Source: a phage. Taken from it: a DNA stretch of 64,000 bases. The DNA is taken from the sequence record PZ386961.1, one strand, 5' to 3'. The position numbers and the translations under genes were made by a program. Positions 4,876 through 24,600 of this stretch are shown piece by piece. Under the pieces are notes generated by a model. The model was not told the DNA's origin and ran no database searches. It worked only from the letters and a program-made list of their open reading frames with translations. Numbering within the stretch: position 1 is the stretch's first letter; each line of letters opens with the position of its first letter.

Positions 4876-4925
4876 TTTTAGATTCTCCAGTTTAGGAAGT
4901 GGGCTTGTTTGCCCGTCTGATGCAA

Positions 4926-4954
4926 ATATTACGTAAACCTGTTTTGTGTGTCAA
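4926..4954 (-). promoter_or_regulatory. sigma70-like promoter (TTGACA-17-TAATAT)
   Basis: Minus-strand hexamers with 17-bp spacer, followed by GGGC..GCCC leader hairpin. Confidence 0.5.
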
Positions 4955-5128
4955 CAGTTTTTATTAAATATTTTTGTAAGGTTGGGAAAGGAACGGGCGC
5001 GCGCGACTACCACAAAACAGAACTACAATCAAGAATTATTTTTCAATCCGCTACAAATTTTTCTGTTGACTTTTATTTCCAGATGTGGTAGCCTTGTGAG
5101 AAATGGCGACATCCCCACCTGCACCCAC

Positions 5129-5311
5129 CTACCTGCACAATTCTAAAATGATTTTTCTTGCCCGACCTGAGCGGGGTCTGCACGTTTTGAAAATGAAAAA
5201 GCTCTTTGGAGATTACCTGCACAGTTTGAAAATGAATTTTCTCTTTGGAGTTCAAAATTCTCTCTACAGATTTCTCTACAGAACTCTACCTGCACAATCC
5301 TAAAATGAAAA
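5129..5311. repeat. four iteron-like direct repeats (about 22 bp, TACCTGCACA-N-T-AAAATGA core) in a 505-bp noncoding region
   Basis: Copies at about 5129, 5176, 5214 and 5287; the region also holds a GCGCGCGCG run and tandem TCTCTACAGA. Confidence 0.6.
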
Positions 5312-5381
5312 AGCCCTCCTTACCTGAAAAATTTACCAGATAAGTAAGGCTTAATCTATTGTGAATATTCTACAGAGTTTC

Positions 5382-6167
5382 TTAGTTCTTTGCGTCTAAG
5401 AAGGTAACTTCTGATGATGAGAAGACCGTCTCGATATCCTCATCAGTTCTTGCATAGATATATGTATCTGCATCACTGCCAAATGTTACTGCAATCCTGT
5501 GATTGCTCTTCGACAGGTGGGTAACTAGAGCGTTACTTAGAGACATCTTTTCAACCGGAGGGTTACTTTGATGTATCTTACCTTTTCTTCGTCTGAAGAG
5601 GGTAACTGCATTATCCGTGAACACAACTACACCTGCAAAGTATTCTGGTTCACAGTAGTTCTTCCAACCTGAGCGTAACTTGTGGTACATCTCTCCTTCA
5701 TAGACATATAGATAAACATCTACACTCTTCATCACCTGATTGATGATAACTGTGACGGCTTGAGGGTCCAACCCACCGATACCTGCACCAATCATAGGTA
5801 AACCAACTTTCTTCAACTGATTAACTTCACAGTATCTGTTAAGCTGTTTCAAAGATGACTCTAAAGCACTGTATCGGGCATCTTTACCAGTCTTAAGCTG
5901 AGTGTAAAGGTTAGCTATACGACCTTGTTTTAAACGTGCTACAGAGAAATTACCCAGTAAATTTTCACAGGGTTTGTGTCCTATACCACCTGCATACAGA
6001 TAAACTTCTGTATCGGTCTCATATGCTTTTGGGTAAAGTTTAGAAATCTTGTCAGCGATACCTGCACCCATTAAATTCATACAGTTGCAACCGTGACCGA
6101 TGATGTCAAACTTACCTTTATCAAATGCGGCAAAGATATCACCATTAATTATTTTTACAATACCCAT
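5382..6167 (-). CDS. macrodomain protein, TARG1/OARD1/Poa1p-like (ADP-ribose hydrolase family) with unknown C-terminal domain
   Basis: Motifs NGDIF, DIIGHGCNCMNLMGAGIA and GLPMIGAGIGGLD match TARG1 GDLF / AHCISEDCRMGAGIA / PRIGCGLD; RBS GGGAGAG; 261 aa. Confidence 0.7.
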   Translation of the reverse strand: MGIVKIINGDIFAAFDKGKFDIIGHGCNCMNLMGAGIADKISKLYPKAYETDTEVYLYAGGIGHKPCENLLGNFSVARLKQGRIANLYTQLKTGKDARYSALESSLKQLNRYCEVNQLKKVGLPMIGAGIGGLDPQAVTVIINQVMKSVDVYLYVYEGEMYHKLRSGWKNYCEPEYFAGVVVFTDNAVTLFRRRKGKIHQSNPPVEKMSLSNALVTHLSKSNHRIAVTFGSDADTYIYARTDEDIETVFSSSEVTFLDAKN

Positions 6168-6368
6168 TTAACATCTCTCCCAAGATTCTTTGTCTTCTGA
6201 AGGTTTTACACGTTGTCCTTCGTGGTCTACCCAGATGCACCCACAACCTTCACAGATTACTGGCATTGCATAACCAGCTTTAAAGTCATCTTCAGTGATA
6301 AGACCTTTTAAGTCACCTGTATCACGTCCGAACATTTCGATAGAACAGTCTTTGCAGAAGTCAGCCAT
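6168..6368 (-). CDS. small Cys-rich (zinc-ribbon-like) protein
   Basis: Internal start MADFCKDC with AAGAGG RBS; CxxC...CEGCGC; stop abuts the macrodomain gene start. Confidence 0.45.
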   Translation of the reverse strand: MADFCKDCSIEMFGRDTGDLKGLITEDDFKAGYAMPVICEGCGCIWVDHEGQRVKPSEDKESWERC

Positions 6369-6588
6369 TGATAATTGCCTCTTGAATGATGATACCTTTA
6401 CCACAACGGCTTTTAAAGTCTTCCAACGGTTGGGAGATGAAGCCACGCAAGCAATCACTAAACACTAAGTTTTTCCTGTAGGCTATCACATCGTTTGCTG
6501 TAAACGGGATGACTTCATTTCTTCCAATGAATACTGCTGACCGGATGAGTTTCCGTGTCTTTTTATCTCTGGCTAGAATTACTCTCAT
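6361..6588 (-). CDS. hypothetical protein
   Basis: 75-aa ORF in tightly packed operon. Confidence 0.45.
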   Translation of the reverse strand: MRVILARDKKTRKLIRSAVFIGRNEVIPFTANDVIAYRKNLVFSDCLRGFISQPLEDFKSRCGKGIIIQEAIING

Positions 6589-7193: not shown

Positions 7194-7462
7194 TTCCTCG
7201 TTTTAAGAACTGCTAAGATTTCTTTAGAATCTGGTAAGAACCATGTGTAGTGATTCTCTTTGATTTCTGGATGAGTGTCAACCTTTATTTTGCACTCTTT
7301 ACCAACATGCTTAAGCTGTGCTGTGATACCTTGCATAAAGATGTGACACATTACATTATCCATAATCGTAGGTAAGAAATCAATCCTCATGTAAGTATCT
7401 TTCGGTCTCGGTAGAAGTAAGTAACCTTCTGTGTAGAAAGTTTCATCATTACTTTGTGTCAT
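7190..7462 (-). CDS. hypothetical protein
   Basis: 90-aa ORF, 4-nt overlap with downstream gene. Confidence 0.45.
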   Translation of the reverse strand: MTQSNDETFYTEGYLLLPRPKDTYMRIDFLPTIMDNVMCHIFMQGITAQLKHVGKECKIKVDTHPEIKENHYTWFLPDSKEILAVLKTRK

Positions 7463-7728
7463 TACTGCTTATTCCCTAATAAAATCATATCAATCAAGTT
7501 GTTAGCTTTCATAGTACACTGATAGTACCCGTCACGATAAAACTCAATGGCTTCTGATAAGTCTGCACCAGTGTTACCTTTGACAGCATATCTTACATCT
7601 TCCTGAGTGTACTTATCACTTTCACTTACTTGGGAGTTTTTGAATGTATTGCTCACTTTGTTCGTTGAACACCCTGACATAGTTATCAGTAACACAAACA
7701 TTATAAAACTCTGGCTTAGTCTTTTCAT
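7462..7728 (-). CDS. putative lipoprotein, o-spanin (Rz1)-like
   Basis: Signal peptide with lipobox-like ITMSGC; overlaps the 3' part of the upstream membrane protein gene in another frame. Confidence 0.4.
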   Translation of the reverse strand: MKRLSQSFIMFVLLITMSGCSTNKVSNTFKNSQVSESDKYTQEDVRYAVKGNTGADLSEAIEFYRDGYYQCTMKANNLIDMILLGNKQ

Positions 7729-7969
7729 ATGTCAGTACCTCTTTTGTGTGCTTATTCTTAGCAAGCACGTCTTTCAAATCATTTTTGTAATTGGTGCTCA
7801 GTGTAGCTAATCCTTCCTGATAAGCATCTTTAGCAACACTTATTAGCTTCTGGTTGTTTAGCTCAGTTTCAGCAACTTGGTAGTCTCTGTAAGAGTATCC
7901 TCCCCAGACACCTGCCCCAACTAAGAAAACAATTATGAAAGTAGCTTGACAGAACTCTTTAAATGTCAT
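7622..7969 (-). CDS. putative i-spanin (Rz)-like membrane protein
   Basis: N-terminal TM segment ATFIIVFLVGAGVWGGY then charged/coiled region; overlapping lipoprotein gene embedded at 3' end. Confidence 0.4.
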   Translation of the reverse strand: MTFKEFCQATFIIVFLVGAGVWGGYSYRDYQVAETELNNQKLISVAKDAYQEGLATLSTNYKNDLKDVLAKNKHTKEVLTYEKTKPEFYNVCVTDNYVRVFNEQSEQYIQKLPSK

Positions 7970-7986: not shown

Positions 7987-8010
7987 TGAAAAAGGCTCCC
8001 GAAGGAGCCT
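7987..8010 (-). terminator. rho-independent terminator (GGCTCC-CGAA-GGAGCC + U-run)
   Basis: Perfect 6-bp GC stem, tetraloop, T-run on minus strand. Confidence 0.6.
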
Positions 8011-8021
8011 GTATCTTAACC

Positions 8022-8501
8022 TTAACCGAGGACTTTAGCAAGGATATTTGCAGCCATCGAAGAAGCTTTTGCAGCAGCAACTACGCCAGCTTTGACAGTG
8101 CTATCCTTAATAGCAGATACCGTTGCAGCATCAGTAAAGAGATAAGTGATTGTTTTAGAACCACTTGTAAAGGAAAGCATAAGAGTAGTTTCCAGATTGA
8201 AAGAGCGATACGGAGCACCTTCTTTAACGATACCTTCAGCACCTAACTCTGAAGCCTTACCCATATCATAGATAGTCATCAGGTTTTCTTTGTGTGCAGT
8301 CGTTGAACCAGCACCTTTTACGTGCTTTTTAACATTCAACAATGCACGATATTCACGAATACTACCATCAGCTTTTACATTAACAGCACGGAAAATTTTA
8401 CCTTCAAAGTTACCTTGAATCATTTTACGAACTACTTCAGATTTGTTTGCCGTATCGTCCAGTGCTACCGTAATGATATTGTTCATAAGTTCTTCTCTCA
8501 A
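8022..8501 (-). CDS. hypothetical protein
   Basis: 159-aa ORF, Ala-rich C-terminus. Confidence 0.5.
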   Translation of the reverse strand: MREELMNNIITVALDDTANKSEVVRKMIQGNFEGKIFRAVNVKADGSIREYRALLNVKKHVKGAGSTTAHKENLMTIYDMGKASELGAEGIVKEGAPYRSFNLETTLMLSFTSGSKTITYLFTDAATVSAIKDSTVKAGVVAAAKASSMAANILAKVLG

Positions 8502-9193
8502 TGTTTAACTAACATAGTTTTAATGTGTGGAAGGATTCTGTTTACCTTCTGAACATTATTCTCTGTATCTTCTATAAAGCATACTATATTAAAGTAAGGA
8601 AGAATGCAAGACTGAATCATCCTCACTTTCAAACTTTCTGCACTTATAGAGTTAGTTCCAAAACCACGCATAAAAAGCAAGTAATCATGCTCTATATTGT
8701 GCCTTAAAAACATCTCAGTAGGTATTCTCTGAGATTCACCTCTTGCTGTCAAGAGTCCAACTGCTGCATGATTTGCAATTGCATCAATAATGTTGAAAAC
8801 ATATGTTGGTTTTGCTCTTACAGAATCAAGAAGATTAGTGTACTGTGAGAATGACCCATCAGTCAATTCCGTTGAGCAATCTTCGTGATTAAAATTTGTA
8901 AGAACGCCATCAATATCTGCTAAGATGAGGTTACCTTTTTCTACAAGGTCTTTATTGACTATGACTAAACTATCACGCCTTACACCTATAGTTTGTCCAG
9001 TCTCTTTGTCCACAACGTTCACAATGGGTTCTGATGTGTGGAACTCTTCAAGTGAACATACAACTTCTCTTGCAGTGTCTTCAAAATCCCTGCACTGTTC
9101 TGGAGTCCATACACAGGAATCAAGACATAACTCATGAGGATGCAAGTCATAAGCGTGGCACAGGACTTCATCAGACTTTCTTAATTTTTTCAT
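8498..9193 (-). CDS. HAD-superfamily phosphatase (possible nucleotidase) with Cys-rich N-terminal extension
   Basis: HAD motif I LILADIDGVLTN; motif II-like GLLTARGES; acidic motif FIEDTENN. Confidence 0.5.
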   Translation of the reverse strand: MKKLRKSDEVLCHAYDLHPHELCLDSCVWTPEQCRDFEDTAREVVCSLEEFHTSEPIVNVVDKETGQTIGVRRDSLVIVNKDLVEKGNLILADIDGVLTNFNHEDCSTELTDGSFSQYTNLLDSVRAKPTYVFNIIDAIANHAAVGLLTARGESQRIPTEMFLRHNIEHDYLLFMRGFGTNSISAESLKVRMIQSCILPYFNIVCFIEDTENNVQKVNRILPHIKTMLVKH

Positions 9194-9719
9194 GATTTAC
9201 CTTAGAAATGTTTGTTGCAAATTCACATTGAGCGATAACTTTCATATTGTTATAGACATCTTGAGAGTATTTCTTAGCTTTAGGGATTCTGTACGAATAC
9301 CCAGCATTATATGATGCTAAAACTTTTTGTAAAGTCTTCTTTGACTTTGGGTGACCGTGTACCTTCGTCCAAAACTCAAGCTCTTTATGTGTTTCTTTTG
9401 CGGCATAGTCAAAATCTTTTAAGAGTTTCTTTTTAGCAACATTAGGACTAATTTTGTTACGCTTTACAACAGTCTTCAAGTGATTCTGGAAGATACCATA
9501 GTCATGGGTCTTTTTATTTTCTACCTTCAGACCTAACTCTGACTCTTGTAAGGCTATAGCTGCTAGAGTGATACCCCAACCTTTACCCATGTTATTCTCA
9601 CCATACTGGTAAGCTTTTAACATGTTCACTTTTTGGCTAATTGATAGCTCTGGGCAGTCAACTGCATAAGATAAGTGTGCTGTAAACATTAAGCACAAAC
9701 CTAGAATCAATTTCTTCAT
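9171..9719 (-). CDS. secreted lytic transglycosylase-like protein (SLT domain), possible endolysin
   Basis: N-terminal signal peptide MKKLILGLCLMFTAHLSYA; catalytic-type motif LQESE...DYGIFQ resembling SLT E-S...G-L-M-Q. Confidence 0.5.
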   Translation of the reverse strand: MKKLILGLCLMFTAHLSYAVDCPELSISQKVNMLKAYQYGENNMGKGWGITLAAIALQESELGLKVENKKTHDYGIFQNHLKTVVKRNKISPNVAKKKLLKDFDYAAKETHKELEFWTKVHGHPKSKKTLQKVLASYNAGYSYRIPKAKKYSQDVYNNMKVIAQCEFATNISKVNHEKIKKV

Positions 9720-13950: not shown

Positions 13951-15732
13951 TTAAAGCTGCTTGTCAATATTATTTCGAATATCACCAAGAGTTGTGTAAC
14001 CGTACTGCTCAGAGTCGCTAAAGACTAAACGTAAAGCACAAGCTGGATGTTCAAGTGCATCTGCAAAGCTCTGGAATCCATAGCCATCTACAGCTTTCAA
14101 ATTCTCACCATCCCACATAGGTGCTACACCACCAAAGGCAGATTTCTTAACACCACTATCTGTTTTAGGGTCTTTTGCAAGCATAATCTCTTTGCCACCA
14201 ATGCTTGCAAGAGTTGCTTTGACAGCAAATGCAAAGGTGTCACGAGTCATGTACTGGTAAGTGTAAGAGCCTACACCAAACACTACGTTAGAGCTTGCAA
14301 AACCCATTTCATACAGACGCTTCAGGATTTCGTTTGCACGTTCCAGCGTGATAGAGTCACCATAGATAAGGCCGATATGCTCATCCAGTACCTTAAACCC
14401 TTTAGAGTTAATAGTTCCACCAAAGATGTTGTACAGTGTCTTAATAGCTCCATCAATCTCAGCTACAGGACGTGTTACAATGTTTGCAGAGCCGTTGATG
14501 TAAGCATCTTTCAGCAACACTGTATCGGCTACTTCAAAGTCTTCTCTGTCAACCACCATTTCATAGCCTTCTACACGTAACCACCCAGCCATAACATAGT
14601 TAATATCTTCAAGCTTCATGTTCAGGACGGTGCTCAGCATTGTGTCACTGGCATTCTGCTTGATAAGGTGCTCGTAATAAGCCTTTTTAGCACACTCTAA
14701 GTGGATTGCTTTATAACCTGTGACAATATGTACAGGGTCTCCAGAGTCAGGTCGAATTACCAGTTTACCGTCACGTTCCATAATCTCTTTACGAAGTGCT
14801 GGTAAGATTTCTGACACAGTTCTCCAGAAGTTATAAGTATCTGAAACAATACTTGCAATACCAGTTGGGTAAGTTTCTGTTAAGAAGCGACGGAAGGTTT
14901 GCAACTCACCTTTAAAGCGTCTTTCTTCTTCAACCAACTCATTACCACCTTCCCAAGCAATGTTTGCACACATCACAGAGTGTTCAGTGGCTGGTACAGA
15001 GCTACCAATATCAGAGATTGGGTAGGACTGTCCATAGATTCGTTTAGCCGTATACACAGCCGGGAAGCTATCAGTTCCTTTAAAGCTGGTTAAGTGTCCT
15101 ACAGCGTTAAATGCGTCATCAGTAAAGCCAGACATACCACGCATAGCAAAGTCATGGCACTGATAAGGCAAGTGTAAGTCGTTGTCACAAGTAAGGTCAG
15201 ACCACTTCTTACAGATACGTTTGTAGTGCAATGCAATAGTTGCAATGGTACAAGCCTTCCAAATTTCAGCAGAGAAAGCATCTTCCAGATACCCCGCTAC
15301 CCAATGGAAACCTGAAACAGTGTTCTGGAAGACAATCATTGGTACACGCATAGGTACAACTGTGCCTTCTTCTACAGCGTATACTTCAACTGGTAGATAA
15401 CCTAAGTCGTGAAGTGCTTCCCAATGCTCTCGACCGATAGCATCTTTACCCAGAACACCATTCATGACTTCTAAGATTTCATCAATGGCTTCTTTTTTAT
15501 CACGTTCAAAGAAAGTGGCGTTCCAGTGGTCTATCAAGTAATCTTTAACAAAACGTTGAATACCAAAAGCTACTACACCATCAATTGCTAAAGGGCTGTT
15601 AAACCATTTATCACTACGTGGTGTCAGGTTCAACATAAGATATTGCGTAGCATCTGGATACTGATATATATGTGATGCCTTGTAAGCATCTGCATTAAGA
15701 CCTGCTGGTACTGCGTAAAGTGACTTACTCAT
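13951..15732 (-). CDS. nicotinamide phosphoribosyltransferase family protein (NAMPT/Namat-like)
   Basis: Motifs FKGTDSF, PATEHSV, IVSDTYNF, IRPDSGDP, YGDSI match NAMPT blocks; 593 aa, about 100 aa longer than classical NAMPT. Confidence 0.85.
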   Translation of the reverse strand: MSKSLYAVPAGLNADAYKASHIYQYPDATQYLMLNLTPRSDKWFNSPLAIDGVVAFGIQRFVKDYLIDHWNATFFERDKKEAIDEILEVMNGVLGKDAIGREHWEALHDLGYLPVEVYAVEEGTVVPMRVPMIVFQNTVSGFHWVAGYLEDAFSAEIWKACTIATIALHYKRICKKWSDLTCDNDLHLPYQCHDFAMRGMSGFTDDAFNAVGHLTSFKGTDSFPAVYTAKRIYGQSYPISDIGSSVPATEHSVMCANIAWEGGNELVEEERRFKGELQTFRRFLTETYPTGIASIVSDTYNFWRTVSEILPALRKEIMERDGKLVIRPDSGDPVHIVTGYKAIHLECAKKAYYEHLIKQNASDTMLSTVLNMKLEDINYVMAGWLRVEGYEMVVDREDFEVADTVLLKDAYINGSANIVTRPVAEIDGAIKTLYNIFGGTINSKGFKVLDEHIGLIYGDSITLERANEILKRLYEMGFASSNVVFGVGSYTYQYMTRDTFAFAVKATLASIGGKEIMLAKDPKTDSGVKKSAFGGVAPMWDGENLKAVDGYGFQSFADALEHPACALRLVFSDSEQYGYTTLGDIRNNIDKQL

Positions 15733-15751
15733 ATTTTAATCTCTCTCTCAA

Positions 15752-15772
15752 AATGGGGCTTTTAAGCCCCTA
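15752..15772 (-). promoter_or_regulatory. intergenic GC hairpin (GGGGCTT-TTA-AGCCCC) between PRPP-synthetase-like and NAMPT-like genes
   Basis: Perfect inverted repeat; weak U-tract, so attenuator or processing site rather than strong terminator. Confidence 0.35.
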
Positions 15773-15779
15773 TAAAGTT

Positions 15780-16661
15780 TCAATCAAGGTTTGCTACAGT
15801 AACTTGACCATAATGTGTTAAGCCACGGTCTTTAGCTTCCCCTAAAGAGTTTGTAGTGTAGATGTGGTCAATGCCATTGTCAAGAAGGTTTTCAACATCT
15901 TTAGAGAAGATACCGTGTGTTACATAGAGTTCCACACGTTTTGCACCTGCTTCACGAAGATGTTTAGCTGCTTCTATGAAGGTTCGACCACCATCACAGA
16001 TATCATCCAGAATCATGACGGTTTTATCTGTCAAATCAACATCATCAAGGATTCGCATACCAGTAATTTCACCAGTCTTAAGGTTGCGTACTTTAGACAT
16101 TGTGATATATGGTTTATCCACCTCTTTAGCAGTCTCTGCAATCTTCTTAGCAGCACCTGCATCTGGGGCTACTAAGTAATCAATCAGTGGGTCATTTGCA
16201 TAGTGGACTGCAATTTCCTTTTGAGGAATACTCTGGAAGCAGTTAAACAGGTTATCTGGTACATAGCTGTGAGGGTCAACTGCACAGACTGCACCAAATC
16301 CCATTGCATTTACCTGTTTAGCAAAAACCTTTAAAGCTGCTGCGTCGCCTTTAAACATGTGACGGTCATAACGTGCATTTGGTAAGTAGTAAAAGATGAC
16401 AGTCTTTAAAGCATAATCATGAGGAATTAAATCATCAATTGCTTCTTTAGCAAGTGCCACAGCAAACAATGTATCCTTATCATAACCTTTTACAATCATA
16501 ATCACATTGTTGATGGATGATGCTGCATAAGCAGTGAAATCAACAAACTCTGGCGAAAAGTGTCCACCAATTTCACCAGAAGGAAATTGGATGATGTTAA
16601 ACTCTTCTTCATGAGTTCCTTTAGTTGGTGAATGAACTGTAACACGGATAGATGTTTTCAT
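15780..16661 (-). CDS. ribose-phosphate pyrophosphokinase (PRPP synthetase) family protein, possibly ADP-ribose pyrophosphokinase
   Basis: PRPP-binding loop VMILDDICDGGRT and C-terminal block RVELYVTHGIFS; start at internal ATG 16661 (track 16676). Confidence 0.8.
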   Translation of the reverse strand: MKTSIRVTVHSPTKGTHEEEFNIIQFPSGEIGGHFSPEFVDFTAYAASSINNVIMIVKGYDKDTLFAVALAKEAIDDLIPHDYALKTVIFYYLPNARYDRHMFKGDAAALKVFAKQVNAMGFGAVCAVDPHSYVPDNLFNCFQSIPQKEIAVHYANDPLIDYLVAPDAGAAKKIAETAKEVDKPYITMSKVRNLKTGEITGMRILDDVDLTDKTVMILDDICDGGRTFIEAAKHLREAGAKRVELYVTHGIFSKDVENLLDNGIDHIYTTNSLGEAKDRGLTHYGQVTVANLD

Positions 16662-16672
16662 AGTTTTCTCTC

Positions 16673-16951
16673 TCAATCAAAAGTTACGTTTGTTACTGCC
16701 ATTGCAGATTTACATTTTGCAGGGTCTACAACGTGATAAAGTACACTACAGTTACCTGTGCTGTCTGGTACAGGTTTAACCCATTGTTGCTTGACAGTTG
16801 GTTCGCCTAAGTCTTTGTAAGAACCATCTGTAAAGTTGTTTACCATCTCAAGTGCAATTGGCTCTGGAACATGACCACGTATCATGTACATTTCACAACC
16901 ATTACCACCCTCACTGACTAGTGGTAAAATCTCCCACTTTTCTTTAGCCAT
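16673..16951 (-). CDS. hypothetical protein
   Basis: 92-aa ORF directly upstream of PRPP-synthetase-like gene. Confidence 0.5.
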   Translation of the reverse strand: MAKEKWEILPLVSEGGNGCEMYMIRGHVPEPIALEMVNNFTDGSYKDLGEPTVKQQWVKPVPDSTGNCSVLYHVVDPAKCKSAMAVTNVTFD

Positions 16952-18214: not shown

Positions 18215-18700
18215 TTACTCGGCTCGCCACTGACAATCACCTTGCCATCCGTACTCTTTTCTCCAGAGGTTTTGGTTATCAGAACCACGATATGGTTTAA
18301 CTGTTGGTTTAGATGAATCATACTTACCATCAATCACCACGTCAACATATTTCATCACATCAAGGTGAATTTTTTCATGTAACTGAAAACCTGTCCAGAG
18401 CCAGATAGATTTTTCTGGGTAAATGGTTTTAATACGTTTGCATATGTTGGTAACCTCTTGAATGTTTCTAGCATCCAGAGGTTCTCCACCAAGTATTGAC
18501 AGCCCACTGATGGCATTATCATCCATTAACTTAATGATGCCATAAAGGTTTGCATAAGTGAACTCTTTACCAGCATTAAACTTCCAAGATTCCTTATTAA
18601 AGCAACCTTCACAGTGATGCTTACAACCAGCTACGAAGAGGCTTACACGAACCCCTTCACCATTAGCTGTGTCAAATGGTCGAATCTCCATGTAATTCAT
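18215..18700 (-). CDS. nrdG: anaerobic ribonucleotide reductase activating protein (radical SAM)
   Basis: CxxxCxxC motif CKHHCEGC near N-terminus; 161 aa; downstream of nrdD. Confidence 0.8.
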   Translation of the reverse strand: MNYMEIRPFDTANGEGVRVSLFVAGCKHHCEGCFNKESWKFNAGKEFTYANLYGIIKLMDDNAISGLSILGGEPLDARNIQEVTNICKRIKTIYPEKSIWLWTGFQLHEKIHLDVMKYVDVVIDGKYDSSKPTVKPYRGSDNQNLWRKEYGWQGDCQWRAE

Positions 18701-18709
18701 CTAGTTACC

Positions 18710-19009
18710 TCACCAATACATATAAGTGTTCTTAGCGGCTTTCTTTGGAGACTTGCTATCAATATCAAAATCTTCATCTAAGAAGGATGTCTTAGAAAGC
18801 TGCCTTATTTGTGTTCTTGTAAGACGTTTAGTGGCCTTCTTAATCTCTCTACAAGGCTGGCTTGTGAAGTCGTAAGAGCCACCTTTTCTGGACATCATAT
18901 CAGAATGGAAGTAGACATCTGAAGCATTTTCTCTGTTACGTACCTCATTTCTCCACTCATAGAGTCCATGAACGTTCTTTAAACCTTTTCTTCGAATTGT
19001 TTTACTCAT
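18710..19009 (-). CDS. hypothetical protein
   Basis: 99-aa ORF. Confidence 0.45.
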   Translation of the reverse strand: MSKTIRRKGLKNVHGLYEWRNEVRNRENASDVYFHSDMMSRKGGSYDFTSQPCREIKKATKRLTRTQIRQLSKTSFLDEDFDIDSKSPKKAAKNTYMYW

Positions 19010-19401
19010 TCAAACACCACCTGACAAGGAACCTGTTTAGTAATAAACTCTTCACAGTGCTCTTTAATGAAGTTTTGTAATGGCACACAATCTTGTGCAC
19101 AAGTCATTAGCATAATGTACTCTGGATTCATAATATTTTCAAGACTGTAGAAGACAACATCGTCAGATAATTCATGACCGTCTTCTTCAGACCAAGTTCC
19201 AGTGACTACAGCTAATTTGTCAAGCAATTCATTAGGCAATGCTACACCATCTTCTACAGAATCACTTAGAACGTTGTCACCAACATACAATGTGAAGGTC
19301 GTATGAAATGTTGAGTATTTTACGTGATTCTTTTCGCAAGAGCCACACTCTGAGGCGTAATCTTTAATCCACTCTAATTGTTTTTGGCTTAACTTAATCA
19401 T
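19006..19401 (-). CDS. hypothetical protein
   Basis: 131-aa ORF, 4-nt overlaps on both sides. Confidence 0.5.
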   Translation of the reverse strand: MIKLSQKQLEWIKDYASECGSCEKNHVKYSTFHTTFTLYVGDNVLSDSVEDGVALPNELLDKLAVVTGTWSEEDGHELSDDVVFYSLENIMNPEYIMLMTCAQDCVPLQNFIKEHCEEFITKQVPCQVVFE

Positions 19402-19613
19402 AATTTGACCTTAGTTGGTATTGCAGAAAATGCAATAGTTAACCCTAAAAATGGTTTGAAGCATGACCACAAATCCATCTGACCCTGATATGAAAACTCC
19501 CATTGTGGGTCTGAGAAACCCCATACTGTGACACTAACCCCAATAAAGAATACCGCTATATGCAGTATTGGTGTCGACACCTTTAAAAGCTTAGACATAA
19601 TTAATTCCACCAT
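19398..19613 (-). CDS. hypothetical small membrane protein
   Basis: 71-aa ORF with hydrophobic segments. Confidence 0.4.
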   Translation of the reverse strand: MVELIMSKLLKVSTPILHIAVFFIGVSVTVWGFSDPQWEFSYQGQMDLWSCFKPFLGLTIAFSAIPTKVKL

Positions 19614-19984
19614 ATAGTTTTCCCATTATCACATGTGTAAAGATATTCTATAGAAGTTTGTGGAACAAGTATAGTGGTACTCCCACTAAGCACGCTCACA
19701 AAATAAGTGACCTCACGGTTTTGAGAGGTTTTTACACAATTGTTTGCATCCATCCATGCCATTACCTTATACGAATCATATACAACAAAAGCACAAAATA
19801 TAAGGAATCCCACTACCATAGCTTTAAAGATAAACTCAGGCCAAAAATCTGAGCAAATAATGTCTTTAAAACGCATGACACCGATAATGATTAATATGAT
19901 GAGACATGCAAGGCTACAAACTGCTACATAAAGCCACAAGTCCATGATACAACTCCAATAAAAAAGGTGATGTAAGCCTATCAA
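19601..19984 (-). CDS. hypothetical multi-pass membrane protein
   Basis: 127-aa ORF with 3 hydrophobic helices. Confidence 0.45.
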   Translation of the reverse strand: MIGLHHLFYWSCIMDLWLYVAVCSLACLIILIIIGVMRFKDIICSDFWPEFIFKAMVVGFLIFCAFVVYDSYKVMAWMDANNCVKTSQNREVTYFVSVLSGSTTILVPQTSIEYLYTCDNGKTIWWN

Positions 19985-20018
19985 GACTCACACCACCATG
20001 TCAAGTTTTTACATAAGG

Positions 20019-20576
20019 CTATTTTTTCTTACAATTGTCAAAATGGTATCGAGTCATGTTACCAGCACCACCAGTCATACCACAATGAGGGCAAGTTTTC
20101 TTTTTCTTTGGCTTTTTTCCGGCTTCTGACATCTTCTTCCTTGTTTCTATAGACCTTTTACAACCTTTTGATTTTGTATTGCCTATTTGAGATTCTCCTA
20201 ATCGTCTTCGATGTTCTTCAGTGAAAACCCTACCTTTATTCACAATAGATAGAGCTTTCGAGTTCAAAGCCCTTACCTTTTCATAGTCTCTGGATGATAT
20301 TTTCCTATCTAGGCCATCATGAGCTAACCTGTTCCATGCAAACCATAACTTATGATTGTTTGGATACATCTTAACCAGTAATTTATGAGCTATATAATGC
20401 TCTCTAGGTGTAAGTAAAGCAATATTATCTCCACTAATTTTATCGCCACCTAGACATACTGGTATGATATGGTGTCTTTCATAACCCTTACCTTGACATT
20501 TGTAGTATGTAAGAGGCACACCCCTTTCAGAATGTGCCTTCTTAATAATTGCATTATATATCAGTTCGTAATTCAT
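20019..20576 (-). CDS. HNH homing endonuclease (free-standing) with C-terminal zinc finger
   Basis: HNH motif ERHHIIPVCLGGDKISGDNIALLTPREH; C-terminal CPHCG; track ORF extends to 20627, overlapping nrdD 3' end. Confidence 0.7.
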   Translation of the reverse strand: MNYELIYNAIIKKAHSERGVPLTYYKCQGKGYERHHIIPVCLGGDKISGDNIALLTPREHYIAHKLLVKMYPNNHKLWFAWNRLAHDGLDRKISSRDYEKVRALNSKALSIVNKGRVFTEEHRRRLGESQIGNTKSKGCKRSIETRKKMSEAGKKPKKKKTCPHCGMTGGAGNMTRYHFDNCKKK

Positions 20577-20583
20577 TTGTATG

Positions 20584-22728
20584 CTACATAGAAACCCTAT
20601 CCTTAATTTCTGCCATCTTAGCGTCATTCATTCGAGACTGACCTTTAATTTTTGTGAATGACAAGTACCCACACACCCTGTTAATCACAGAGATATCATG
20701 TGAGTGACAAACTTCACACTCTTCAACATCTGATTTTGGTCTGTTACCACAATGCTCACAGATTGCTAAGTCAAAGTTAAGTCCCTGATAAAAACCCTTC
20801 AACATCCCTCTTGTAATACAGCTCTTAAGTGCTGTTAAGTTTTCTGGGTTAGCTACTCTTACATACTGGATTCTACCGCCTCTACAGATATGGAAGAATG
20901 GCTCTTCTAAGTCCTGCTTCTCAAATGGTGAGATGTCTGCTGCAACATTCATATGGAAACTGTTTGTAAAGTATTCCTTATCGGAAACACCTTTGATAAC
21001 CCCAAACATATCTCTGAACTGTTTTAGCTGAGTCCCACATAGTGATTCTGCTGGAGTACCATAGACGGCATATAAGAAGCCATCTTCATTTTTAAACTCT
21101 TCGGTTTTCATGTTAATGTATGCCAGAACATCATATGCAAAACTATAGCTTCCAACTTCATGAAGTCGTTTACCTTCAGCAAGAACAGACAACTCATCAA
21201 GCGCAGTAACACCAAAAGAAGCTGTGAAGGACTTCACAATATCCCAACCAACCTTGTCAGTAGGTTTCTTAGTTCCTTTGTACAGACCACCTTGTGTGAA
21301 TGCAAGAGGGTTAGAACTTGCTGGCATATTAGCAATCATTTCGTAGCGTTTCTTATGGAAACTACGAATCATCTCTAGGTACTTATCAAGCTCTTTCCAG
21401 AAATCTAAACCATTCTCTTTAGAATACTGGTAAATCATTGGCAAGTTCAAAGATACAGCACCAATGTTAGCACGACCAACGTAGAACTCTTCTCCACCCT
21501 CATTAAGATATGGAGATAAAAAGGCTCTGCAACCCATCGGTGAAATTACCTTACCAGAACGCTCAAAAGCCTCTGCTACAGCACCATGACCAGACACACT
21601 TAAGAAATCTGGGTACATTGCTTTAGAGCAACACTCGATGGCTTTACTGTACAGGTGACCTTGACAGATATTTTCATCATGTCTCTTCTGGTCATAAATA
21701 TAAACCAGTTTAGGGAATACAACAGGTTTTTTGCTCTTGCCTTGTCCATTCATACGAACATCTAGGAGAGTACTTGCAATCATGTATTGGAGTCGATTAT
21801 CCTCATTAGACATATCTGAGTCAAGTAAACCAAATGTTAAAGTTGTGAATGCAAAATCACCACGGCTACAAGGTACGGTATTTAGTTTCATCTCAAGTGA
21901 CTGAAAACCCTGAGTCAGTTCAATTTGTAACTGCTCCATTACATAATTGTGGTAATGCTCTTTAGGAATACCATAAGATGATGCTTTCTCAGCATGATAG
22001 CGTAGAGACTTCTTAGCATACGGTACAAGTACCTTATCAATCTCTGCTAAAGTAAAACCACCAAATTGCTGTGCAGTTGCTGAAAGTACTACGTCACCAA
22101 TAACCTGCAACGCTGACAGTACAGATTTAGGTTCACAGTACTCAATGCCGGACATTTCAAAGCCACCTTTTAGTACTTTACCAATGTCAAACAGGCAACA
22201 GTTAATACCACCAAAAATCAGGTCTCTCAAATCGTGGATATAGATAAAGCCTTTCTCAATGGCTTCAAGTTCCTCTGGTGTTAGATGATACTGTTTAAAG
22301 ATTTCTTTAGTCAGGTAACCACGGATAATTGAACCTTTCGTAGAAATTAAACTGCTGTCAAAGTTAGCATTTTCACGGTCACCTAAGAAGAGTGTATCTT
22401 TAGTCTTCTGGTAGAGTTCGTCCCAATTTTGAGCAACCTCTTTACGGTAATTTCTGTATGTTGAGTAAGACTCATAAATCTCGTGATTGACCTCTGCCAA
22501 AGCACCTTCAACAATACTGTGAATATCATTTACCGAGATAAGCAAATTATTCTGCTTAGTGGACTTTACCAAAATCCTCATGAATGCTGACTCAAGAGCT
22601 TGGGTAACATCTGGTGGCAGTTCTTTATACCCAACCCTGTTAGCTGACTTTGTTACTGCCGCTAAAACTTTTTTGATATCGGGTTCTTCAAGTGAGCCGT
22701 TCTTTTTAATAATCTGTACTTTGTTCAT
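20584..22728 (-). CDS. nrdD: anaerobic ribonucleoside-triphosphate reductase
   Basis: 714 aa; C-terminal Zn site CEHCG...CEVCHSHD and glycyl-radical motif RVCGYL. Confidence 0.9.
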   Translation of the reverse strand: MNKVQIIKKNGSLEEPDIKKVLAAVTKSANRVGYKELPPDVTQALESAFMRILVKSTKQNNLLISVNDIHSIVEGALAEVNHEIYESYSTYRNYRKEVAQNWDELYQKTKDTLFLGDRENANFDSSLISTKGSIIRGYLTKEIFKQYHLTPEELEAIEKGFIYIHDLRDLIFGGINCCLFDIGKVLKGGFEMSGIEYCEPKSVLSALQVIGDVVLSATAQQFGGFTLAEIDKVLVPYAKKSLRYHAEKASSYGIPKEHYHNYVMEQLQIELTQGFQSLEMKLNTVPCSRGDFAFTTLTFGLLDSDMSNEDNRLQYMIASTLLDVRMNGQGKSKKPVVFPKLVYIYDQKRHDENICQGHLYSKAIECCSKAMYPDFLSVSGHGAVAEAFERSGKVISPMGCRAFLSPYLNEGGEEFYVGRANIGAVSLNLPMIYQYSKENGLDFWKELDKYLEMIRSFHKKRYEMIANMPASSNPLAFTQGGLYKGTKKPTDKVGWDIVKSFTASFGVTALDELSVLAEGKRLHEVGSYSFAYDVLAYINMKTEEFKNEDGFLYAVYGTPAESLCGTQLKQFRDMFGVIKGVSDKEYFTNSFHMNVAADISPFEKQDLEEPFFHICRGGRIQYVRVANPENLTALKSCITRGMLKGFYQGLNFDLAICEHCGNRPKSDVEECEVCHSHDISVINRVCGYLSFTKIKGQSRMNDAKMAEIKDRVSM

Positions 22729-22746
22729 TATTGCCCCTTTACATGC

Positions 22747-22769
22747 TAAAAAGGTCTCCGAAGAGACCC
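22747..22769 (-). terminator. rho-independent terminator-like hairpin upstream of nrdD
   Basis: GGTCTC-CGAA-GAGACC with flanking A/T runs. Confidence 0.45.
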
Positions 22770-22776
22770 TTTCATT

Positions 22777-22983
22777 TTAAATCTTTTTAGAAAACTTAGA
22801 AACGAGTTTTCTCAGTTTTTCAGTGATGCCTAACTGTATCTCTAATATTTCAAAGATAACCCATAGTAACATGGCCCCAAACAATGAACCTTGTTCAAAA
22901 TCAGTAAATAGGTTAACAATCAGCATACCAATCACAATAGCTGGTGCATCAACAACCAAACCTTCCCAAATGCGTTTAAGCAT
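22777..22983 (-). CDS. hypothetical small membrane protein
   Basis: 68-aa ORF with two hydrophobic segments. Confidence 0.45.
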   Translation of the reverse strand: MLKRIWEGLVVDAPAIVIGMLIVNLFTDFEQGSLFGAMLLWVIFEILEIQLGITEKLRKLVSKFSKKI

Positions 22984-23218
22984 TATTCACCTCTGTCATA
23001 AAATTCTGTAGCGTCCCAACAGGCTTTAGGTTTTGTCCATCAGTTTTCATGATGAATGGCATCTGACGAACTGGCATCTGTGCAATATCCATCAGGTCTG
23101 ACAGTTCATAATCCTGCCCTAACATTCTCACAACATGGTCAATACCACGAGTTTTTGCAAAATTCTTTGCAGTCTCACACTGAGGGCATCCAGTTTTGGA
23201 GTAAATCACATAAGTCAT
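22976..23218 (-). CDS. glutaredoxin/NrdH-like redoxin
   Basis: Active-site CPQC near N-terminus (YSKTGCPQCETAK); 80 aa; adjacent to nrdB. Confidence 0.65.
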   Translation of the reverse strand: MTYVIYSKTGCPQCETAKNFAKTRGIDHVVRMLGQDYELSDLMDIAQMPVRQMPFIMKTDGQNLKPVGTLQNFMTEVNNA

Positions 23219-24291
23219 TAAGGAACCTCTAAAAATCCACTATTCAAATCATCTACAACAGTATTCAACAGGTACGCACCGTTCTGTTGCTCCTGATTAG
23301 CATTCTGCTCTTTATCAATTTCCATCTTCTTAATCATATACTTCAAAGGTGGTTCTTTAGGAGCTACAAAATCTCTGGGAATACCAAACATATCATACAG
23401 TGGGGCAGCATTATAGTAAACCCACTCATGAAGAAGTTTTGTATTTAACCCAACTACAGCACGTCCTTCAGAGAAGATATAATACGACCATTTCTCTTCA
23501 CTTTCAACTACTTCATCTAAGATTACTTTAATCTCTGGAAGAATTTGTTGAAAAGCTTTCTGCCACTCATCATCTCTTAAAGTTTCTTTTAAAACTTCAA
23601 TATCAATTTTGGTGTGAAGGATTTCATCAAGCATAATCTTCTGGACAGCTTGAGCAATACCCTGAAATTTATCCTGAGCATCAAGTGCAAAGGTACATGC
23701 AAAAGATGCCATGAAGGAAATACCTTCGAGTGCAGTCACTGCAAACAGCCCTTTCAGAATCACTTTATGGAAGTGTAAAGGGTCTTTGTCCAGAAGTGAA
23801 TCACGGACATAACTCAGGCGATAGTTTATACCTTCATCCAGTAATTCTTCAAGAACACGATTCACAGTTTTTAATCGGTCTTGTACAGCAACATTCTGGT
23901 TAATCTCATCTAAGATTGTTTCAGGGTTTTTAATACATTGCCTTACAATCTCTGAGTAAGTAAGAGCATGTAGGTTTTCAATCTCAGACTGCTTCATAAT
24001 TGCAGTTGCATAGATGTCATCAGAGATGAATGGTGCAAAGGCGAATGCCAAGCTCTTAGCAACTTGGGTATCTGCTTCCCACTGCCACTTAAGAATCTCA
24101 AGCATTACACCTGACATTGATGCTGGCACACTCTCAAAATCAAGACGTGATTGTTCAAAAGGAAACTCATCTTCTGACCAGTCTTGCGCTTTTTGTTGTT
24201 TATATAGCTCAAAGATTTTTGGGTAGTGTTTATTAAGTGAGTCAAATGTCTTTCTCTCACCACCTAAAAAGATTGGGTGTTGGTTAATCAT
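23218..24291 (-). CDS. nrdB: ribonucleotide reductase small (beta) subunit
   Basis: Position directly downstream of nrdA, typical size; ferritin-like region with DEILH; start at internal ATG 24291 (AGGAG RBS; track 24351). Confidence 0.75.
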   Translation of the reverse strand: MINQHPIFLGGERKTFDSLNKHYPKIFELYKQQKAQDWSEDEFPFEQSRLDFESVPASMSGVMLEILKWQWEADTQVAKSLAFAFAPFISDDIYATAIMKQSEIENLHALTYSEIVRQCIKNPETILDEINQNVAVQDRLKTVNRVLEELLDEGINYRLSYVRDSLLDKDPLHFHKVILKGLFAVTALEGISFMASFACTFALDAQDKFQGIAQAVQKIMLDEILHTKIDIEVLKETLRDDEWQKAFQQILPEIKVILDEVVESEEKWSYYIFSEGRAVVGLNTKLLHEWVYYNAAPLYDMFGIPRDFVAPKEPPLKYMIKKMEIDKEQNANQEQQNGAYLLNTVVDDLNSGFLEVP

Positions 24292-24545
24292 AGTGTGATT
24301 TCTCCTTTCTTTATCATTTCTAAGGCTTGTTTTCTGTCTAGAACTTCCCAATTTTCTTCATTGAACATTTCATATGGTCTTGCATAGATTTTACCATCTG
24401 CTGTAGAGACGTATGACACACCATCGACCCATGAGTCATCATTTTGTTTTATCATCATATCTGTGCTACTTACATAGTACATCGTTTTCCGAGGTTTGTA
24501 GAACAGATAAATTGGCCACTTATGATTTGCTATTAAGTCCTTCAT
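24288..24545 (-). CDS. hypothetical protein
   Basis: Track ORF 24288..24629; start moved to the internal ATG with a GGAGAG RBS; stop overlaps nrdB start (ATGA). Confidence 0.4.
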   Translation of the reverse strand: MKDLIANHKWPIYLFYKPRKTMYYVSSTDMMIKQNDDSWVDGVSYVSTADGKIYARPYEMFNEENWEVLDRKQALEMIKKGEITL

Positions 24546-24600
24546 ACTCTCTCCAAAGTTATTTTTAGAGGGTCTTTTACGACCCTCATAGTTGTTAAAA

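Follow-up and report, generated by a model that had tools for sequence, protein, structure and literature searches.

What does a phage gain from a macrodomain enzyme that carries a second, orphan domain? Felixounaviruses are in wide use in the typing and therapy of Salmonella and E. coli, and their counter-defence set bears on host range. We analysed a stretch of 64,000 nucleotides (PZ386961.1), called the window throughout, which comes from a Felixounavirus and encodes such a protein on its minus strand. Two preprints of 2025-2026 gave different jobs to what our comparison makes a single macrodomain family, with T4 Tk.4 acting against DarTG2 and Adpp acting as an ADPR-1''-phosphate phosphatase. 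Knockout of tk.4 sensitised T4 to DarTG2 (bioRxiv 10.1101/2025.11.20.689424), while Gary Adpp turned ADPR-1P into ADPR in vitro and Adpp was required for NARP1-AP to overcome aRES (bioRxiv 10.64898/2026.01.28.702374). NARP1 itself was discovered in Bas63, in the operon of genes 79-80, and Bas63 is a Felixounavirus congeneric with the window phage. The window adds to this family a third, two-domain branch in the genus of Bas63. We consider that the gene probably encodes a counter-defence enzyme of the Tk.4/Adpp macrodomain family, whose likeliest main role would be to convert ADPR-1''-phosphate to ADPR and thereby feed the phage's own NARP1. The features on which this reading is built are as follows.

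5382..6167 including the stop codon, minus strand: macrodomain gene, two-domain product of 261 aa, orthologue of Felix O1 ORF13 / Felix01p025
5700..6167, minus strand: macrodomain, residues 1-156, placed in the phage Tk.4/Adpp (Poa1p-like) family by Pfam Macro, AF2, Foldseek and BLASTP
5385..5699, minus strand: orphan C-terminal domain, residues 157-261, with a linker helix, six β-strands and a C-terminal helix
5300..5352, minus strand: terminator-like hairpin and U-run directly after the macro stop codon, from RNA folding
6168..6368, minus strand: 66-aa four-Cys (CxxC...CxxC) mini-protein, phrog_2210, MADFCKDC...CEGCGC, abutting the macro gene
13951..15732, minus strand: Namat-like (NAMPT-family) gene of NARP1, PF04095 and PF18127, proposed pathway partner
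15780..16676, minus strand: Adps gene of NARP1, PF14572 and PF00156

The minus strand codes both the macro gene and the mini-protein where the sequence-only reading had put them. At the nucleotide level the macro gene is 92-97% identical to Felixounavirus genomes, in which it is annotated as a phosphatase, a macro domain protein or an O-acetyl-ADP-ribose deacetylase. Its claimed place as the final gene of a compact operon was borne out by abutting ORFs, flanking terminator-like hairpins and a gene-free gap beyond. Eight minus-strand ORFs, overlapping or abutting, run from 7969 down to 5382, and an upstream terminator-like hairpin lies at 8010..7993. The hairpin at 5352..5311, with its U-run after the macro stop codon, has a dG of -24.8 kcal/mol and a z-score of -3.67 (0/200 shuffles as stable), and is followed by 500 nt free of genes; L004 has an equivalent hairpin and T-run. 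The TAA of the mini-protein passes into the ATG of the macro gene with no gap (TAA|ATG), and a GGGAGAG Shine-Dalgarno-like run lies ~8 nt upstream of that ATG. The neighbours of the macro gene are small phage ORFs with no assigned function, and no darT lies beside it. Searched with Rfam, the intergenic repeats on the 3' side yielded only a sub-threshold sRNA match, which falls inside the downstream gene. A spanin-like pair is encoded in the same transcription unit as the macro gene.

The 261-aa ORF includes NGDIF, DIIGHGCNCMNLMGAGIA and GLPMIGAGIGGLD, so that all of the TARG1/Poa1p-type sequence blocks claimed for the product are present. Against Pfam Macro (PF01661) it scored 32.3 bits at E=1e-7, above the cut-off of 22 bits, which places it in the superfamily. 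An AlphaFold2 model was obtained with pLDDT 86 and pTM 0.86. Foldseek against the PDB returned 236 matches at E<=1e-3, and the best 50 of these 236 were almost all macrodomains. Ranks 1-5 were TARG1 (E ~1e-9, target-normalised TM 0.80-0.84), with DarG at TM 0.78-0.82 and Poa1p at TM 0.75. A fold comparison with TARG1 and DarG had been proposed as a check on the sequence-only reading, and it agrees with a macrodomain for which these two are the nearest solved folds. Residues 1-156 are with confidence a true macrodomain with the three-layer alpha/beta/alpha fold.

To see what the active site holds, we compared residues across the family. Invariant residues include H25, N28, Q90 and the stretch G127-A-G-I-x-G-L-D134, and Q90, in the motif NLYTQ, is invariant in 19/19 family members. 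K84 of TARG1, which equals K80 of DarG, aligns with this Gln90, and D125 of TARG1 aligns with Gly131 in three independent alignments (phmmer, profile and MAFFT). Because the catalytic Lys of TARG1 and DarG is replaced by a family-invariant Gln, the protein is not a TARG1-type enzyme, and the description TARG1/OARD1-type does not hold in catalytic terms. Catalysis would instead run through the conserved His25, Asn28 and Gln90, the macrodomain binding an ADP-ribose derivative and hydrolysing the substituent on C1'' of the distal ribose.

The first framing of the gene was that of an eraser of the TARG1/MacroD kind, acting on mono-ADP-ribosylated protein (Asp/Glu) or on O-acetyl-ADP-ribose, or else of a protein that degrades or sequesters ADPR-derived signals such as those of Thoeris. 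Human TARG1/OARD1 (PDB 4J5R/4J5S) is indeed the closest to the window protein in both fold and PDB sequence (profile E=3.7e-11), and some database records call the product an O-acetyl-ADP-ribose deacetylase. However, the pair K84/D125 has become Gln and Gly throughout the phage family, and such activities are not known for any member of it. As for the ADPR-based signals of Thoeris, the phage proteins that the retrieved papers describe as acting on them either sequester them or are RyR-domain enzymes, with no macrodomains among them. We regard this framing as extremely improbable.

Poa1p does housekeeping work in eukaryotic tRNA splicing. The N-terminal motif H-G-C-N-C of the window protein is the same as that of yeast Poa1p; over the N-terminal half, Poa1p is the PDB protein that matches best by sequence, and H23 of Poa1p is the residue altered in the deposited mutant chain 6lfs. 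Poa1p (PDB 6LFQ-6LFU) is an ADP-ribose 1''-phosphate phosphatase in which ILIHSCNCNGSWGGGIA...YPKA stands against DIIGHGCNCMNLMGAGIA...YPKA in the window protein, but the sequence alignment is limited to the first ~60 residues and Poa1p has no C-terminal domain. This likeness opens a housekeeping reading, in which the enzyme would act like Poa1p and clear ADP-ribose 1''-phosphate or 1'',2''-cyclic phosphate left by 2'-phosphotransferase-type RNA repair, together with a nearby PNK-like phosphatase. A HAD/PNKP-like gene of the same orientation does lie 2.3 kb upstream, at 8498..9193; homologues of its product have weak HAD_PNKP matches, and its Felix O1 orthologue is annotated as a polynucleotide kinase. 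Also in keeping with RNA repair, P0026, which belongs to the same macro subfamily, carries a fused cREC_REC domain of the kind that processes cyclic phosphates, and the synteny is like that of the T4 pseT/vs/tk.4 region. The window PNKP-like protein, however, has no Pfam match at E<=1, and counter-defence function was found in 2/2 experimentally tested family members, so that we hold a repair role to be very unlikely.

Those tested members belong to the same family as the window protein. The PHROG 335 profile matched residues 1-260 at E=1.9e-113, and the window, T4 Tk.4 and Adpp groups have in common H-x-C/A-N-C, N-x-Y-(T/G)-Q (a form of the family motif N-x-Y/H-x-Q) and IG(A/C)G, which together assign the protein to the Tk.4/Adpp family. 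By BLASTP it is 34% identical to T4 Tk.4 (E=2e-25) and 27% identical to Gary Adpp (E=6e-14), and thus closer in sequence to T4 Tk.4; these two are 35% identical to each other (E=2e-23), and from the window protein PhiKZ AdfM was reached at only E=2e-4. In a neighbour-joining tree, the Tk.4/Adpp family formed one clade apart from PhiKZ AdfM and TARG1 in 156/200 bootstraps, but a NARP1-linked Adpp clade appeared in only 1/200, with Adpp sequences interleaved with T4 Tk.4. A phylogenetic division into 'AdfM-type' and 'Adpp-type' clades was rejected as impossible, since the Adpp sequences are not monophyletic. As such, the window protein groups on sequence with both T4 Tk.4 ('AdfM') and the phage Adpp ADPR-1''-phosphate phosphatases, and it is a further architecture of a known macrodomain family. 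The earlier family call was thus right in that TARG1 and DarG are the nearest folds, but the link to Adpp and NARP1 had not been considered. Our literature search for macrodomain or DarTG data on Felix O1 or Felixounavirus found nothing relevant.

The two relatives differ from the window protein in distinct ways. T4 Tk.4 shares PHROG 335 and the motifs IAHGCNC, MGxG(I/V)A, NLYTQ and IGAGIG, and each gene comes from a virulent myovirus, where it sits among accessory genes of a T4-like rII/vs/tk region. Unlike the window protein with its extra 105-aa orphan domain, Tk.4 is a stand-alone macrodomain of 155 aa, and T4 is not named among NARP1 phages in the literature found, whereas the window phage carries NARP1. 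Adpp, represented by KNV71_gp137 of Vibrio phage Gary, shares the motifs H-x-C-N-C, Y-x-Q and IGxG and likewise comes from a phage with Adps and Namat. However, Adpps are single-domain proteins of roughly 150-170 aa, encoded inside the NARP1 operon or no more than two genes from it, while the window gene is ~7.8 kb away and fused to the C-terminal domain. The loop after YTQ is short in the window protein and in T4 Tk.4, in contrast to the longer loop after Y(G/T/A/S)Q in all Adpps aligned.

The counter-defence role proposed earlier thus draws support from experiments on homologues, T4 Tk.4 being 34% identical and needed against DarTG2. This raises a more specific possibility, that the gene is a dedicated anti-DarTG2 factor and orthologue of T4 Tk.4/AdfM, de-ADP-ribosylating thymidine in phage ssDNA, with the C-terminal domain binding DarT2 or ssDNA like the second domain of DarG, and with the NARP1 link being coincidental. 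In its favour, no characterised homologue is closer than T4 Tk.4, which has the same short loop and a DarTG2 knockout phenotype, and the DarG HMM is the sole PADLOC/NCBIfam match of the window protein. DarG macrodomains are among the best fold matches, N28 is the equivalent of the active-site Asn of DarG (N22) and PhiKZ (N23), and the layout of a macrodomain with an extra domain parallels DarG2. But only one of the two residues of the DarG active-site pair is kept (Asn, as N28), and the other, K80 in DarG and K78 in PhiKZ gp104 AdfM (Cell Rep 2026, PMC13309987), is replaced by the invariant Gln, so that the pair as a whole is not preserved; at this site the T4 Tk.4 loop has no basic residue whatever. 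The DarG HMM gave the window protein 47.7-47.8 bits (cut-off 250 bits), whereas PhiKZ AdfM, with its biochemical proof, reached 133. The match covered only the macro part, positions 18-146 of 329 in that HMM and ~4-153 over the DarG models of PADLOC and NCBIfam (329/338 positions). The C-terminal domain has no match to the DarT-binding domain of DarG, the match to the DarG models ending with their macro part, and this domain is not consistently basic, family members having pI values anywhere between 4.6 and 9.5. DarG2 also differs in that the window gene has no darT neighbour. De-ADP-ribosylation of DNA by a Lys-less member of the family is itself a conjecture from the T4 knockout phenotype. 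We therefore treat a dedicated anti-DarTG2 role as possible but rather doubtful.

What favours our preferred reading, conversion of ADPR-1''-phosphate to ADPR, is the presence of NARP1 in the same phage. Adps and Namat are encoded in the same genome as the macro gene, and the Pfam signature of Adps (PF14572 and PF00156) is that of the first gene in the Bas63 79-80 operon; Adps homologues are present in the NARP1 phages JG004, Thalassa and PH357. Both distant relatives examined (L010 and L011) preserve the series Namat - rIIA - rIIB - ... - macro-CTD, with Namat upstream of the macro gene, and this common NARP1-macro synteny may reflect shared descent alone. The macro gene does not lie within two genes of the Adps-Namat operon but belongs to another transcription unit ~7.8 kb downstream, with at least two terminator-like sites in between. 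This distance speaks against the pathway reading, as do the closer sequence likeness to T4 Tk.4 than to Gary Adpp and the short T4-type loop. The Adpp screen covered only genes within two of NARP1, and its Table S1 holds no Escherichia or Salmonella phages (bioRxiv 10.64898/2026.01.28.702374). Given this two-gene range and the composition of Table S1, that screen would have missed the window macro gene.

Based on these relations, we infer a pathway that starts from ADPR-1''-phosphate, the product of aRES and like RES-type NAD+ phosphorylases. The window macro enzyme would convert this to ADPR, most likely as its main role in a NARP1-carrying Felixounavirus, and Adps and Namat of the same phage would rebuild NAD+ from ADPR, giving a NARP1-AP whose phosphatase is coded ~7.8 kb off. 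With the same active site it would probably also free thymidine of DarT2-type ADP-ribose in phage ssDNA, the activity inferred for T4 Tk.4. This raises the possibility of a 'split' NARP1-AP in Bas63 and Felix O1 that is invisible to an operon-based screen, and the questions of whether a Gln-for-Lys macrodomain can de-ADP-ribosylate DNA and what the orphan domain adds to an anti-defence enzyme.

Residues 157-261 are a real, conserved yet fast-diverging β-rich domain. The C-terminal ~105 aa had been called unassignable, and we likewise found no family match by sequence or fold: the domain has no fold match in the PDB, a fold search in BFVD gave its own family as sole matches, and profile searches of the protein database and the PDB gave nothing new. 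A search of a 5.8-billion-protein set did not re-list the family's own full-length members and thus counts as weak negative evidence. Two candidates were rejected. A PH-like domain was suggested by a Pfam PH match at only E=0.16 with no structural support, and the only non-family match, P0033 (1077 aa), was judged spurious, being a 30-residue low-complexity stretch that occurs six times in an Ig-like repeat array. We infer that the domain is a lineage-specific, fast-evolving add-on, and its likeliest part is in targeting or regulating the enzyme via a partner protein or nucleic acid. A bolder and unlikely version is that it is a new module for gripping a host immune protein (e.g. DarT2 or a RES-type NADase) or phage ssDNA, making a two-in-one antidote, an enzyme joined to an inhibitor or a targeting arm, convergent with DarG2, and, linked to this, that the Lys-less Tk.4/Adpp family is bifunctional on ADPR-1''-P and DNA-thymidine-ADPr. 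Felixounaviruses have two alleles, the window type and the L004/Si3 type. If the domain did grip such a target, the sharply bounded allele swaps of Felixounaviruses would track host-target variation, and if the family were bifunctional, one enzyme would beat two unrelated defence systems.

The remaining claim of the sequence-only reading was that the macro gene is coupled to the Cys-rich mini-protein. The adjacency stands, but the coupling is one of genus-level gene order only. The mini-protein gene is present in 836 phage records, Vequintavirus and T5-like phages among them. From two further phage groups, one record each of Vequintavirus and Epseptimavirus was examined, and in neither does the gene have a macro neighbour. 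Distant macro-CTD genes have different upstream neighbours, and an identical mini-protein sits beside a macro allele with only 41% identity. On these grounds a functional coupling of the two genes was rejected. The mini-protein has no match in Pfam, PADLOC or the PDB. Its C5, C8, C39 and C42 are invariant while its terminal Cys is not conserved, and we judge it to be an independent, widespread zinc-ribbon-type gene outside the macro system.

The window protein, a 261-aa product, is a genuine macrodomain protein, as the sequence-only reading had held. Its gene and the one before it, encoding a Cys-rich mini-protein, lie as follows:

5382..6167, minus strand, macro gene (ORF, 261 aa)
6168..6368, minus strand, mini-protein gene (ORF, 66 aa)

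The protein matched Pfam Macro above threshold and PHROG 335 over residues 1-260 (E=1.9e-113). The AlphaFold2 model built from 19 family members (pLDDT 86, pTM 0.86) had TARG1 (TM 0.82-0.84), DarG macrodomains (0.78-0.82) and Poa1p (0.75) as its top PDB fold matches. All sequence blocks quoted earlier were found in the window ORFs at the correct locations, so the macro gene is real and correctly placed, and its general nature had been annotated previously. The window belongs to a Felixounavirus and matches Felix O1-type Escherichia and Salmonella phages at 92-97% nucleotide identity; the Felix O1 orthologue is ORF13 (Felix01p025), and existing database labels are 'phosphatase', 'macro domain protein' and 'O-acetyl-ADP-ribose deacetylase'. 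What is new is the two-domain layout, in which one domain is an orphan that evolves fast; the membership in a Lys-less family uniting T4 'AdfM' with 'Adpp'; and the co-residence with NARP1, the Adps and Namat pathway of NAD+ rebuilding, in the genus where NARP1 was defined.

The assignment to the TARG1 type did not hold at the catalytic level. The position of TARG1 Lys84, equivalent to DarG K80 and PhiKZ AdfM K78, is occupied by Gln90 of an NLYTQ motif, and TARG1 Asp125 is replaced by Gly131; phmmer, family-profile and MAFFT L-INS-i alignments concur on both correspondences. Gln90 is invariant in 19/19 two-domain proteins, and T4 Tk.4 and every Adpp sequence aligned have its equivalent as well. 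Judged from these residues, the window protein is not TARG1-type in catalytic terms. The Asn of DarG N22 is retained as N28. The DarG HMMs (PADLOC, NCBIfam) gave only ~48 bits, confined to the macro part of the models, compared with 133-138 for PhiKZ AdfM, which is proven biochemically. Over the first 100 residues the top PDB match is yeast Poa1p, with which the protein shares its N-terminal motif, (I/A)HGCNC...MGAGIA...YPKA; Poa1p His23 is the residue altered in the deposited mutant chain 6lfs.

A tblastn search placed the N-terminal domain in ~2,800 records from phages, among them T4 Tk.4, Pakpunaviruses and Vibrio phages. Knockout of T4 tk.4 made the phage sensitive to DarTG2, and the protein was named AdfM; DNA de-ADP-ribosylation was proposed by the authors without biochemistry (bioRxiv 10.1101/2025.11.20.689424). 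Adpp proteins are encoded by Poa1p-like macrodomain genes embedded in NARP1 operons, and that of Vibrio phage Gary turns ADPR-1''-phosphate into ADPR in vitro, enabling NARP1 to defeat aRES, a RES-domain NAD+ phosphorylase (bioRxiv 10.64898/2026.01.28.702374). The idea of a counter-defence enzyme is thus supported through these homologues. Using the Adpp sequences in Table S1 of the latter study, we obtained the following pairwise matches:

Window protein and T4 Tk.4, 34% identity, E 2e-25
Window protein and Gary Adpp, 27% identity, E 6e-14
T4 Tk.4 and Gary Adpp, 35% identity, E 2e-23
Window protein and PhiKZ AdfM, 23% identity, E 2e-4

A neighbour-joining tree grouped the two-domain proteins as a clade (200/200 bootstraps) and set the whole Tk.4/Adpp family apart from PhiKZ AdfM and TARG1 (156/200). 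The NARP1-linked Adpp sequences were not monophyletic (1/200), and T4 Tk.4 was nested among them. Because of the pairwise matches and this interleaving, T4 'AdfM' and 'Adpp' are, at the sequence level, one family; since Adpp is not monophyletic, the tree assigns the window protein to neither job. We infer that one chemistry could serve both, in that hydrolysis at the distal-ribose C1'' position would free phosphate from ADPR-1''-phosphate and thymine-N3 from DarT2-modified DNA.

The genomic surroundings bear on the choice between the two jobs. Adjacent NARP1 genes lie at 13951-16676 on the minus strand, upstream of rIIA/rIIB and the macro gene:

15780..16676, minus strand, Adps (Prs-family gene; PF14572, PF00156)
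13951..15732, minus strand, Namat (NAMPT-family gene; PF04095, PF18127)

The same Pfam families have been described for Bas63, a phage of the same genus, in its two-gene operon 79-80; NARP1 was discovered there and counters NAD+-depleting defence. Homologues of the window Adps occur in the NARP1 phages JG004, Thalassa and PH357 of the Adpp study. The macro gene lies ~7.8 kb downstream of the pair on the same strand, past rIIA and rIIB, and the order Namat, rIIA, rIIB and, further on, macro-CTD recurs in both distant two-domain lineages with enough contig (L011 and L010, with 76% and 40% macro identity). The Adpp screen covered genes at most two positions from NARP1, and its table holds no Escherichia or Salmonella phages (bioRxiv 10.64898/2026.01.28.702374); the macro gene would therefore have escaped it. 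Given the NARP1 pair in the window, the recurring gene order and the blindness of the screen to this gene, the main role of the window protein is most likely that of the phosphatase in a split NARP1-AP pathway, that is, NARP1 with an added Adpp. An anti-DarTG2 role, additional or alternative, is likely, by analogy with T4.

The C-terminal domain (CTD, residues 157-261) remains unassignable, as first described. It is predicted to have six β-strands between a linker helix and a C-terminal helix, with per-block pLDDT of 71-91 in the full-length model (54 at the last residue) and 75 for the domain alone. Run exhaustively over 1.84 billion representatives, phmmer revealed no relatives outside the family; the one non-family match, a repeat protein, was judged spurious. 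Profile searches also returned nothing, which is a weak negative, and Foldseek against viral models matched only its own family. Within the family there are two homologous CTD subtypes (hhalign 96.7%, E=3.7e-10), and P174, G179 and Y236 are conserved. The CTD diverges far faster than the macrodomain, macro/CTD identities to the window protein being 81/54% for P0002, 53/19% for P0009 and 43/13% for P0013. As its charge is not conserved (pI 4.6 to 9.5 across the family), a generic DNA-binding role is not favoured, and the rapid divergence together with the confident inter-domain packing (pTM 0.86) suggests that the CTD may bind a partner or act in regulation. A 339-aa metagenomic protein (P0026) of the same macro subfamily (NLYTQ, IGAGIGGLD) carries instead a cREC_REC 'cyclic-phosphate processing receiver' domain (PF20274); the macro family thus accepts differing C-terminal modules, and this fusion hints at a connection to RNA or cyclic-phosphate chemistry.

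The proposed coupling to the mini-protein was not borne out. This protein has an invariant MADFC-x2-C ... C-E-G-C-G pattern, with four Cys in a zinc-ribbon-like arrangement and a non-conserved terminal Cys, and homologues in 836 phage records. In Vequintavirus (rV5-like) its gene ends an operon beside an Ig-like gene and in T5-like Epseptimavirus it lies inside a tRNA cluster, with no macro gene nearby in the one record of each:

L008 (phage Murica), 2501-2701, mini-protein homologue at an operon end
L009 (Salmonella phage 1-23, Epseptimavirus), 2501-2701, mini-protein homologue in a tRNA gene cluster

Upstream neighbours of more distant macro-CTD genes were one 63-aa CxxC...CxxC ORF and two non-Cys proteins. 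Within Felixounavirus, an identical mini-protein adjoins a macro allele of just 41% identity (L004). Comparing window ~5382-6588 with L004:4470-5870, the mini-protein gene retains 96-98% nucleotide identity, while the macro-CTD gene and a 75-aa gene upstream of the mini-protein gene are exchanged for versions of ~41% amino-acid identity; nucleotide identity breaks sharply ~36 nt inside the macro ORF. Phages Si3, BPS17L1 and phiWec177 have the same swap pattern. The adjacency of the two genes is a matter of gene order and not of functional pairing, and the macro-CTD gene behaves as a recombination cassette. The 63-aa ORF (L003:4810-5001) overlaps the start of a macro-CTD gene whose macrodomain is 43% identical. 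This ORF has no homology to the window mini-protein (BLASTP E=0.5); its placement may be chance, or small zinc-ribbon proteins may pair with such genes recurrently.

The description of the macro gene as last in a compact operon is supported. Its ATG directly follows the mini-protein TAA, with a GGGAGAG run slightly upstream, and eight minus-strand ORFs abut or overlap from 7969 down to 5382. Terminator-like hairpins flank the unit, upstream at 8010..7993 and, with a U-run, 3' of the macro stop at ~5352..5300 (dG -24.8 kcal/mol, z -3.7), beyond which is a 500-nt gap without genes (4876-5381). Whether the operon is early is uncertain, because a spanin-like overlapping pair (7462-7969, minus strand) shares the unit. 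ORF 7622..7969 is an i-spanin candidate by the 'Rz-like spanin' label of its Felix O1 orthologue, and ORF 7462..7728 is o-spanin-like with the lipobox LITMSGC. The pair is placed similarly to T4 pseT.2 and pseT.3, which adjoin pseT on the T4 map.

Within the gap, just downstream of the macro terminator hairpin, four clustered direct copies of CTGCACnnTTnnAAAATGA lie at 5133-5308 on the plus strand (0.34 expected across the whole window) and extend to 29-34-nt repeat units. The repeat region had no Rfam match; the copies may serve as sites for a regulator, as an array of promoters or as iterons. T4-like synteny was seen at 8498-9719 on the minus strand, a possible RNA-repair context:

9171..9719, minus strand, homologue of the T4 'vs-regB intergenic' 20.7-kDa protein (weak SLT match)
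8498..9193, minus strand, following gene, HAD/PNKP-like protein (Felix O1 orthologue annotated polynucleotide kinase)

A block of nucleotide-metabolism genes at 18215-26835, minus strand, encodes a radical-SAM activase resembling NrdG, the anaerobic NrdD, and both subunits, small and large, of class I RNR. Just downstream of nrdD, a NUMOD3-containing, homing-endonuclease-like ORF (20019..20627) overlaps the nrdD 3' end.
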